DNA from: Enterobacteria phage GiZh | Length of the DNA: 64,000 bases | Sequence record: NC_054903.1 | Strand: one strand, 5' to 3' | Part shown: positions 5,872 to 8,500 of the stretch, piece after piece | How the letters are laid out: each line of letters starts with the position of its first letter | Position numbering within the stretch: the stretch's first letter is position 1 | Translations under genes and position numbers: made by a program | The notes under the pieces: model-generated | What the model saw: only the letters and a program-made list of their open reading frames with translations | What the model was told of the DNA's origin: nothing | Databases searched by the model: none

Positions 5872-6057
5872 TTAAAGCGTATTCACATAAGCTATTAATT
5901 CATTTTCTTTCTTATCAAACCGATCAGCAAATTCTTCCTGCTGTTCTGGAGATAGCGGGCCGTATTCATCATAAAAGGTGTTTGCTTCTATATGCTCATC
6001 TAGAAGTTCATGGATAAGCTCAAACAATTTATCTTTTTGTTCTTTGCTTAGACTCAC
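5872..6057 (-). CDS. small acidic hypothetical protein
   Basis: 61 aa ORF directly upstream of tk. Confidence 0.45.
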   Translation of the reverse strand: MSLSKEQKDKLFELIHELLDEHIEANTFYDEYGPLSPEQQEEFADRFDKKENELIAYVNTL

Positions 6058-6226
6058 AGTATGTCAATCCCCAAAAGTTTTAAAATGACTCGTTTCTGAT
6101 TCATAACCGCTACGATTGAATGACCGTTGGGGTCTTTTTGACCTGATCCAATTATAAATCCTTTTTGCGCAGAAAGTTCAATCAAAACATCAAGTTCACG
6201 TAATAATTGATATTTTAAATCATCAT

Positions 6227-6454
6227 TCATTTTGGTTTACCTTCTTTAACGAAATCAGGATAAGGATAAAATCCTGAATAAAATCCTTCACCTTTATGAT
6301 TGATGCATCCTTTATTAGAACAATAGCACCAATAATCGAAATCACAAGCCATTTCATCGTTGCATAAAGCAAAAACAACCGGCCACTTACACTTTTCACA
6401 GTGGGCATTTTTAAGAATACTAGTTTGGCTCATAACCATGTAACCTTTAAGCAA
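6227..6454 (-). CDS. Cys-rich small protein (possible metal-binding)
   Basis: 75 aa with 8 Cys including CEKC and CYC pairs. Confidence 0.45.
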   Translation of the reverse strand: MLKGYMVMSQTSILKNAHCEKCKWPVVFALCNDEMACDFDYWCYCSNKGCINHKGEGFYSGFYPYPDFVKEGKPK

Positions 6455-6642
6455 TATTCTTCTACATGTTGTTTACGACCTTTCTTATCAATAAAGGTAT
6501 ATTCAACGAATGTTCCAATGTAGTCTTTATCTACATCATGTGGACTATTAATTGGACATTTAGTACGGCAAATGCGTTCCCATTGACGAATAATTACTGC
6601 TTTGTTTTTAGGATCAAACGGATGCGGGTAATGTACTTTCAT
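6430..6642 (-). CDS. hypothetical protein
   Basis: 70 aa ORF in track. Confidence 0.45.
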   Translation of the reverse strand: MKVHYPHPFDPKNKAVIIRQWERICRTKCPINSPHDVDKDYIGTFVEYTFIDKKGRKQHVEEYCLKVTWL

Positions 6643-7093
6643 AATCCACCACTATTAAATCAATATCAGGAGTAAACATGTCGATTAATTTAGAAACCTT
6701 ATCCCAATCGCCGCCAGCAATACCACAACCTATGCGTGGAATGTAAATTACCGGTTTAAACAAAAGGGTTTCTGCCTGTAGATTTAATTCTATCATGCAG
6801 TTTACTAAAGCACCATAATCAAGATTAGGACCTGGTTCGTATTGCGTATACAAGTTATAACATATGCCAAAACCATTAGGTTTATGTTTAAAAACAATAG
6901 ACATATCGCCTAATTTATCACGAGAACCGTACTCAGTAGTGGTTTTATCTATTTCTAAAATTTTGGGATAGGCTCTTGCTAATTGACCCGCTACACCTGA
7001 ACCCATAGTATGAAAACAATTGCACCCGTGCGCAATAATATTACCTTGAAGAAATAGGGCGACAATATCGCCCTTGATATATTTTGCAATCAT
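6614..7093 (-). CDS. macro-domain protein (ADP-ribose binding/hydrolase fold)
   Basis: 159 aa; GDIVALFLQGNIIAHGCNCFHTMGSGVAGQLA and PRIGCGIAGGDW resemble macro-domain Gly-rich loops. Confidence 0.6.
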   Translation of the reverse strand: MIAKYIKGDIVALFLQGNIIAHGCNCFHTMGSGVAGQLARAYPKILEIDKTTTEYGSRDKLGDMSIVFKHKPNGFGICYNLYTQYEPGPNLDYGALVNCMIELNLQAETLLFKPVIYIPRIGCGIAGGDWDKVSKLIDMFTPDIDLIVVDYESTLPASV

Positions 7094-7431
7094 CTAGTAC
7101 TCAATCCTCGATTATAAGAATCTACCAAACGGTCAACCATTGAATGACAAGCGGCTTTATCTTTCTCCTCCGCAACTGAACATTCTAAGGTATTCCACTT
7201 TTTAGCATATCGTTTTAATAATGTATCGTTTTTGTATCTACTTGATTTATCTCTTTCTCCGTCTTTATATGCATATATTAATTTCTGCGCAAATTCAGCT
7301 TGGCATGCTTTATTTTTCCCGCAATAATCCGCTGCAGTACGGTTTACATACTCTCTAATTTCAGTATATGATGTATCTGCTAACGCAGAAAATGAAATTA
7401 ATCCTATACATAAAACCAAAATTTTAGTCAT
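7090..7431 (-). CDS. small secreted Cys-containing protein (T4 vs position)
   Basis: 113 aa; N-terminal signal-peptide-like MTKILVLCIGLISFSALA. Confidence 0.55.
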   Translation of the reverse strand: MTKILVLCIGLISFSALADTSYTEIREYVNRTAADYCGKNKACQAEFAQKLIYAYKDGERDKSSRYKNDTLLKRYAKKWNTLECSVAEEKDKAACHSMVDRLVDSYNRGLSTR

Positions 7432-7969
7432 TTACTATTTCCAAAAGTTTATTATTTTTAAGGTAATTAGCCTTTTCTAGGACTTCAGAAGCATATTTAG
7501 AACCTGCTTTAACATTCCATCCCGAATTATAAGAGGATATTGCTTTTCTTATATCGCCCTTATGTATATTTAACCAATAAGAAAGTTCAATGTACGCCCA
7601 GGAAGCTGAATTGGATCGTTTATTCAACATTCTTTTTATTTCAGCATCGGTCATATTATAACCAAGTTCCTTAACTCTTGCTCGCATAGTAGGCAAATAA
7701 TTTTGGAACATTCCATAAGCGTGATGCTTTGGTTTAGATTTTAAATTAACTCCGCCAGAGCTTTCTTGCCATAAAATAGCAGCCATTATATGACCTAATC
7801 CGCTCTTGTGGATATTTTTGTGTGTTTTATATTTTCCATCCTTAGAAAACTGTTCCCCGAATTGATACGCGTAACGCATGTTATCGAGTTGGACATTACT
7901 GAAAGTATGCTCGGAGCTATGTGCCATCATTGAAATGGCCAATAGACCAGCGAGTAGTGCTTTTCTCAT
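7424..7969 (-). CDS. lytic transglycosylase-like secreted protein
   Basis: 181 aa; signal peptide; AAILWQESSGG resembles the SLT catalytic ES motif. Confidence 0.55.
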   Translation of the reverse strand: MRKALLAGLLAISMMAHSSEHTFSNVQLDNMRYAYQFGEQFSKDGKYKTHKNIHKSGLGHIMAAILWQESSGGVNLKSKPKHHAYGMFQNYLPTMRARVKELGYNMTDAEIKRMLNKRSNSASWAYIELSYWLNIHKGDIRKAISSYNSGWNVKAGSKYASEVLEKANYLKNNKLLEIVND

Positions 7970-8457: not shown

Positions 8458-8500
8458 ATAGAAAAATTATACCACAGTCAAGAGGAAAAGTAAACAGTTA
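8458..8500 (-). promoter_or_regulatory. early promoter upstream of regB
   Basis: Minus sense TGTTTAC, 18 nt, TATAAT (forward attata 8466-8471; gtaaac 8490-8495). Confidence 0.6.

Follow-up and report, generated by a model that had tools for sequence, protein, structure and literature searches.

We found that a 159-codon gene in the window (by which we mean the whole 64,000-nucleotide stretch of DNA that was analysed) quite probably encodes Tk.4 (AdfM) of the Tevenvirinae, a stand-alone ALC1/TARG1-like ADP-ribosyl glycohydrolase whose likeliest role is to remove DarT2-attached ADP-ribose from single-stranded phage DNA. The open reading frame is complete from ATG to stop:

6614..7093, minus strand: tk.4/adfM coding sequence, a single macrodomain of the JS98/SP18-type allele, assigned from the open reading frame, the Pfam Macro match and the position of T4 tk.4.

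The window is a Tequatrovirus genome: the 4 kb surrounding the gene shares 99.3% identity with Shigella phage A2, where the gene is labelled "macro domain containing protein", and exceeds 98% identity with hundreds of Tequatrovirus genomes. At the same position, between vs and tk.3, T4 carries tk.4, annotated as "phosphatase; contains A1pp phosphatase motif". The gene order (rI-rI.1-tk-...-tk.3-tk.4-vs-vs.1-regB) is that of T4, and the vs-tk.4-tk arrangement is kept in five genera (Dhakavirus, Kanagawavirus, Jiaodavirus, Marfavirus and Gaprivervirus). The window protein aligns with T4 Tk.4 over its full length without gaps (57% identity, E=4e-69); the two share the single-domain architecture, loop 1 and the residues N25 and Q84, and differ in that the window protein is longer by four C-terminal residues. 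By position, homology and retained active-site residues, the gene is the ortholog of T4 tk.4/adfM. Because this is a long-annotated T4 gene, the macrodomain call is not new: the A1pp assignment of tk.4 orthologs was in print by 2006 (PMC1524935). The identity of the gene and the anti-DarTG2 idea are thus both already known, the former annotated for about twenty years and the latter published in 2025. The tk.4-type macrodomain is also a very common phage gene. A tblastn search of 50,697 phage records found homologs in 2,767 of them, an exhaustive profile search returned 18,401 cluster representatives at E≤1e-3, and 41% of myoviruses have macro domains according to a published survey.

The earlier note had proposed a macrodomain on the strength of two Gly-rich loops, and profile, fold and motif evidence all bear this out. 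The protein matched Pfam Macro PF01661 with E=6.1e-8 and PHROG 335 with E=1.2e-70, well beyond what chance would give. The Pfam match scored 33.1 bits, where the gathering cut-off is 22, and spans positions 2-117 of the 118 in the profile. The nearest solved structures by sequence were BT1257 (2AFC/2FG1), yeast Poa1p, SCO6735, the DarG macrodomain and TARG1; a family profile built from 52 homologs and run against PDB sequences recovered BT1257 at E=3.6e-20, TARG1 at 2.8e-17, SCO6735 at 1.3e-15, Poa1p at 2.7e-15 and DarG at 1.4e-11. An AlphaFold2 model, computed from the homolog alignment minus the T4 row (pLDDT 94.2, pTM 0.89), predicts a three-layer alpha/beta/alpha fold with a mixed central sheet. 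When this predicted model was compared with the PDB by Foldseek, all top matches were macrodomains (probability 1.00, TM 0.72-0.82), the best being TARG1, BT1257, Poa1p, DarG and SCO6735; human TARG1/OARD1 (PDB 4J5R) was the best structural match, with a TM of 0.81. Both Gly-rich loops are present, residues 18-39 and 121-130 corresponding to ADP-ribose-binding loops 1 and 2, and the signature positions N25, G31-S-G33 and G122-C-G124-I-A-G-G vary hardly or not at all. Since the closest relatives in both sequence and structure (TARG1, DarG, SCO6735, BT1257 and Poa1p) all belong to the ALC1/TARG1-like class, we conclude that the window protein is a macrodomain of this class.

Two more specific labels were rejected. 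The top NCBIfam match was DarG (NF048014), but at 27.1 bits against a cut-off of 250 and over the macro region only (positions 3-142 of 338), and the sole PADLOC match was likewise DarG (E=6.7e-7 over 13-144 of 329). The C-terminal DarT-binding domain and an adjacent darT are both absent, the 159-residue protein being a single domain whose gene is flanked by vs and tk.3; it is thus not a true DarG antitoxin. Nor is it a MacroD/YmdB O-acetyl-ADP-ribose deacetylase, the equivalog model scoring 15.8 bits against a cut-off of 291.

The same score bears on the second suggestion of the earlier note, that the protein degrades (or sequesters) immune signals, either the gcADPR of Thoeris or the O-acetyl-ADP-ribose of sirtuin defences. 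Macrodomains can process soluble ADP-ribose derivatives, a survey suggests that those of phages may mostly target small molecules, and several sources automatically name homologs "O-acetyl-ADP-ribose deacetylase". Besides falling far below the MacroD/YmdB cut-off, however, the protein has no catalytic Asp of the MacroD type following its GxG loop (the position is A35, which is invariant), and its best structural relatives are of the TARG1-like class rather than MacroD. We therefore consider a signal-directed role very improbable.

The similarity to Poa1p raises a further alternative, namely an ADP-ribose-1''-phosphate phosphatase that would clear by-products of the KptA/Tpt1 RNA 2'-phosphotransferase during phage RNA repair. 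RefSeq and PHROG both use the label "phosphatase", Poa1p was among the best matches (profile E=2.7e-15; Foldseek 6e-9), and the H-x-C-N-C motif is common to Poa1p. However, the label stems from the old SMART domain name A1pp and not from an assay, and many macrodomains show A1pp phosphatase as a weak side activity. The Tk.4 family is about as similar to Poa1p as to TARG1, BT1257 or SCO6735, these three scoring equal to or above Poa1p, and the knockout phenotype reported for T4 is specific to DarTG2. Together, these points leave the phosphatase reading improbable, and the glycohydrolase assignment is the one that we pursue below.

The active site of Tk.4 comprises the following elements:

6977..7042, minus strand: strand β2 and loop 1 (NIIAHGCNCFHTMGSGVAGQLA, residues 18-39), with invariant H22, G23 and N25 and the G31-x-G33 phosphate/distal-ribose loop.
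7019..7021, minus strand: Asn25, invariant in 257 of 257 family members.
6842..6856, minus strand: N-L-Y-T-Q motif with Gln84, placed by profile alignment to TARG1 and BT1257.
6704..6739, minus strand: loop 2 (PRIGCGIAGGDW, (PR)IGCGIAGGDW, residues 119-130), diphosphate-binding, placed by motif and alignment.

Conservation within the Tk.4 family is close to complete at the polar positions (Q84 and Y82 in 259/259, N80 in 258/259, N25 in 257/257), and the family signature can be written HGCNC…MGxG / NxY[TS]Q / PxIGxGxAGGxW. In the profile alignment Gln84 occupies the column of the catalytic lysine of TARG1 (K84) and of the BT1257 Gln; the corresponding residue is DarG's catalytic lysine K80, and Q85 in SCO6735. 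This equivalence rests on the profile alignment together with a published structural alignment (PMC9411070); when SCO6735 was compared by phmmer with a C-terminal fragment, loop 2 alone aligned and not the surroundings of Q84. None of the 259 family members has the TARG1/DarG catalytic lysine, all carrying Gln84 instead. The Asp125 of the TARG1 Lys/Asp dyad is also missing: Ala126 stands in its column, which holds Ala or Gly across the family, so that the K84/D125 dyad of TARG1 contrasts with Q84/A126 in the window protein. This Asp is absent from DarG and SCO6735 as well (PMC9411070). Asn25 has counterparts in SCO6735 (N27) and in the AdfM of phage PhiKZ (N23), both needed for the activity of those enzymes. 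Finally, loop 2 is nearly identical to those of SCO6735 (PRIGCGLAGGTW) and BT1257 (PRIGCGLAGGKW), and unlike those of TARG1 (GCGLDRLQW) or DarG (GVGNGGLDW).

SCO6735 (PDB 5E3B) and BT1257 thus share with the window protein the ALC1/TARG1-like class, the Gln in place of Lys, the conserved Asn and the PRIGCG[IL]AGGxW loop. They differ in being cellular rather than phage proteins, with only about 25% identity to it, and BT1257 has about 6 more residues in the loop that follows the Gln; a longer mobile loop is reported for SCO6735 (PMC9411070). SCO6735 is without the Lys/Asp residues; it cleaves thymidine-linked ADP-ribose off single-stranded DNA and guards cells against DarT, and either Q85A or N27S abolishes its activity (PMC9411070). 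From the alignments, T-even Tk.4 most likely uses the same lysine-independent, SCO6735-type mechanism.

We propose the following course of events. The substrate would be the ADP-ribose that host DarT2 puts on the N3 of thymidine in single-stranded phage DNA, at TNTC motifs. Because the Asn25/Gln84 pair and the PRIGCGxAGGxW loop are those of the SCO6735/BT1257 subgroup, a catalytic scheme like that of SCO6735 is probable: Asn25 would hold Gln84, which would position the distal ribose, and a backbone-held water would then attack. Removal of ADP-ribose would allow replication to continue and cancel the abortive DarTG2 defence. Since SCO6735 is also reported to inhibit DarT through direct interaction, a non-catalytic contribution is possible for Tk.4, too. 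Hydrolysis of thymidine-ADP-ribosylated DNA has been demonstrated in two relatives, SCO6735 (PMC9411070) and the Lys-type AdfM of PhiKZ (PMC13309987).

Genetic evidence for this role comes from the T4 ortholog. A preprint (bioRxiv 10.1101/2025.11.20.689424) reports a genome-wide transposon screen in which, of all T4 genes, tk.4 alone was needed on hosts expressing DarTG2, and a clean tk.4 knockout that made T4 DarTG2-sensitive; the gene was accordingly renamed adfM, for anti-DarT factor Macrodomain. This is the knockout on DarTG hosts that the earlier note had suggested, with a positive outcome, and the proposed action against ADP-ribosyltransferase defences is thereby supported for the T4 ortholog. 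This agrees with an earlier study, in which T4 and T2 without adfA and adfN are reported to be still DarTG2-resistant (PMC11825919). The preprint's DarTG2 evidence is genetic and concerns the T4 allele (bioRxiv 10.1101/2025.11.20.689424); by analogy, we infer that the 57%-identical window allele acts as T4 Tk.4 does.

A wider role must also be weighed, in which Tk.4 is a broad eraser whose main targets are not DNA but uracil in RNA, or Glu/Asp-linked proteins modified by other host ADP-ribosyltransferases, with DarT2 reversal as one role of several. TARG1-like macrodomains are promiscuous, which counts against a single-substrate reading: uracil-linked ADP-ribose on single-stranded RNA is cleaved by TARG1, DarG and SCO6735 (PMC13036486), and SCO6735 also cleaves Glu-linked protein ADP-ribose and de-modifies PARP1 (PMC9411070). 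The size of the family (18,401 representatives; 2,767 phage records) likewise seems wider than the known distribution of DarTG2 requires. On the other hand, tk.4 was found in the DarTG2 screen and, in the available text of the preprint, is mentioned for no other system tested. We know of no bacterial defence in these hosts that uses a uracil-RNA ADP-ribosyltransferase. Furthermore, T-even phages with tk.4 remain sensitive to CmdTAC, which places ADP-ribose on adenine in mRNA, and T4 with tk.4 depends on adfN against DarTG1, which modifies guanine (PMC11825919; bioRxiv 10.1101/2025.11.20.689424). Because neither of these marks is erased in T4, Tk.4 is not a universal eraser. We conclude that a mainly non-DNA role is unlikely, though less so than the other alternatives considered here, and that DarT2 reversal remains the preferred reading.

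Reversal of the phage's own marks is the least credible explanation. T-even phages carry three ADP-ribosyltransferases (Alt, ModA and ModB) besides the Tk.4 eraser, and Tk.4 could in principle undo their modification of host proteins or RNA. However, tk.4 adjoins no ADP-ribosyltransferase gene at its locus, and the T4 knockout is reported to be viable with a DarTG2-specific defect. The chemistry also argues against it: Alt and ModA/B modify arginine, a linkage cleaved by ARH-type enzymes, and macrodomains are not known to cleave arginine-linked ADP-ribose, so reversal of Arg-specific marks is unlikely.

Its proposed removal of DarT2 marks as an orphan eraser places Tk.4 beside several known systems, and comparison with them indicates that the name AdfM covers two lineages. 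The name was given independently twice, to PhiKZ gp104 (PMC13309987) and to T4 Tk.4 (bioRxiv 10.1101/2025.11.20.689424). PhiKZ gp104 is reported to remove DarT2-installed ADP-ribose from DNA in vitro, with activity reduced by N23A (Cell Rep 2026, PMC13309987). It follows the same logic as Tk.4, that of an orphan antitoxin-like eraser carried on a phage, and together with DarG (PDB 5M3I, 5M31, 7OMU) it shares with Tk.4 the fold, the class and the proposed substrate, thymidine-ADP-ribosylated single-stranded DNA. Unlike Tk.4, both DarG and PhiKZ AdfM have the catalytic Lys (FPTK motif), and DarG further differs in its C-terminal DarT-binding domain and adjacent darT gene. PhiKZ AdfM matches DarG at E=9e-25, and is only about 20% identical to the Tk.4 family. 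Its Lys-type assignment was taken from this DarG alignment; the hmmalign row of gp104 on the Tk.4 profile, in which the PTK lysine fell two columns off, was dropped. PhiKZ gp104 is therefore Lys-type and DarG-like, and T4 Tk.4 is Gln-type and SCO6735/BT1257-like. TARG1, which resembles Tk.4 in class, also cleaves thymidine-ADP-ribosylated DNA. AdfN (T4 30.3, a NADAR protein) and AdfA (T4 61.2) are, like Tk.4, anti-DarT factors of T-even phages, and AdfN is again an orphan antitoxin-like eraser; these proteins have an unrelated fold, and AdfN works on guanine-linked ADP-ribose (DarTG1), not on the thymidine-linked form.

The tk.4 gene is tightly packed among its neighbours, and its 5' part contains a hairpin:

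7090..7093, minus strand: ATGA overlap of the vs stop and the tk.4 start, from the sequence.
6614..6642, minus strand: 29-nt overlap of the tk.4 3' end and the tk.3 start, from the sequence.
7056..7074, minus strand: 8-bp GC-rich hairpin in tk.4 codons 7-13, at +20..+38 of the coding sequence (A of ATG as +1), AGGGCGAT-ATT-GTCGCCCT, about -13 kcal/mol.
8466..8494, minus strand: sigma-70-like promoter match upstream of regB, TTTACT-17-TATAAT with TG, a consensus match only.

Directly upstream of tk.4 lie vs.1 (7424..7969), which encodes an SLT lytic transglycosylase-like protein 100% identical to that of T4, and vs (7090..7431); stop and start codons overlap in all three genes. The T4 preprint describes vs as conditionally essential in minimal medium (bioRxiv 10.1101/2025.11.20.689424). 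Given the ATGA overlap, vs and tk.4 may be translationally coupled. The overlap with tk.3 is also 29 nt in SP18 but only 4 nt in T4. The promoter match is a weak candidate for the start of a regB-vs.1-vs-tk.4 transcript, weak because sigma-70-like sites in this region are no more frequent than in shuffled sequence.

The window, T4, SP18 (Gaprivervirus) and UGJNEcP4 (Dhakavirus) all have the same hairpin stem despite differing flanking codons. The Vequintavirus SYGMH1 carries compensatory changes (GGGAGAT/ATCTCCC; Val->Ile, Ala->Ser) in a hairpin at these codons, and PEi20, ValerieMcCarty02 and Marfa have none. Several database records contain a truncated tk.4, with a 130-aa coding sequence that begins at Met30 and the hairpin labelled as a terminator; Yersinia phage fPS-90 (NC_055723, 601..1071) is one example, and cluster P0002 another. 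This shorter coding sequence is probably an annotation error, as it removes the N-terminal strands and the catalytic Asn25. A mis-called start in the window was ruled out: the whole family conserves residues 1-29, among them the invariant H22 and N25, and the full-length start is therefore correct.

The window gene belongs to one of two diverged alleles of tk.4 that are found in otherwise similar genomes. Its neighbours are nearly identical to those of T4 (rI 99%, rI.1 100%, tk 99.5%, tk.3 96%, vs 97%, vs.1 100%, regB 99%), and the divergence is confined to one segment:

6609..7064, no strand assigned: divergent allelic cassette, with DNA identity to T4 of 0.40-0.82 inside and 0.92-1.00 in the flanks.

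In contrast, the window protein and the Tk.4 of Shigella phage SP18 share 95% identity (90% in their DNA). SP18 is a Gaprivervirus, and the genes around its tk.4 reach only 42-74% identity to those of the window. An SP18-like tk.4 amid T4-like neighbours indicates that the allele moved between genera as a gene-sized cassette. By megablast, 329 phage records, including RB3 and PP01, contain the window-type allele at a coverage of at least 80%; T4, T2, T6, RB32 and others match it over the first ~150 nt only, at 80-88%. The T4-type allele, including a sub-type at about 81% identity, is present at the same coverage in 377 records, and all of the classical T-evens T4, T2 and T6 carry it.

When the alleles were compared by secondary-structure segments, the differences were concentrated in the β3-β4 hairpin (6 of 19 residues identical), α5 (3 of 11) and β6 (2 of 11), while loop 1 was identical at all 8 positions from 25 to 32 and T83-Q84 was kept. 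The segments conserved between the window and T4 alleles are thus those assigned from the alignments to the active site. Overall, 43% of residues differ, including 4 of 11 in loop 2, which reads GCGIAGGD in the window allele, the family consensus, and GAGIGKGN in T4. The T4 loop is unusual in this respect: only 5 of 259 family members have Lys at position 127.

The block of small open reading frames from tk to tk.3 (5872..6454) is also mosaic, and T4 tk.1 is absent from it. The product of 5872..6057 is 79% identical to SP18 tk.2 versus 52% to T4 tk.2; that of 6227..6439/6454 resembles SP18 gp111 (67% identity) and lacks a counterpart in T4; 6054..6230 has a counterpart in neither phage.

With at least two deeply diverged alleles (57% amino acid identity) at similar frequency on near-identical Tequatrovirus backbones, we tentatively suggest, while regarding it as doubtful, that tk.4/adfM is a hotspot at which alleles are exchanged. 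If selection rather than drift maintains them, one possibility is that the alleles are specific for different DarT2 variants, for instance by binding the toxin directly as SCO6735 does; another would be escape from a host factor by which AdfM is sensed or inhibited. The conserved hairpin at +20..+38 could, in addition, regulate the expression of tk.4.

As a discovery these results matter little, but they may be of some use to those working on AdfM. Many database records truncate or misname tk.4, as a "phosphatase", a 130-aa coding sequence or a "terminator". The available text of the cited papers discusses neither the allele mosaicism nor the Gln-type active site. The second allele is present in roughly half of the sequenced T4-like phages, and cross-genus exchange of this kind is the pattern expected of an arms-race gene. 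Finally, the T4-type AdfM is a Gln-type, SCO6735-like enzyme and not a DarG-like, Lys-type one; what is deduced about mechanism from DarG or PhiKZ AdfM may therefore not hold for the T-even protein.
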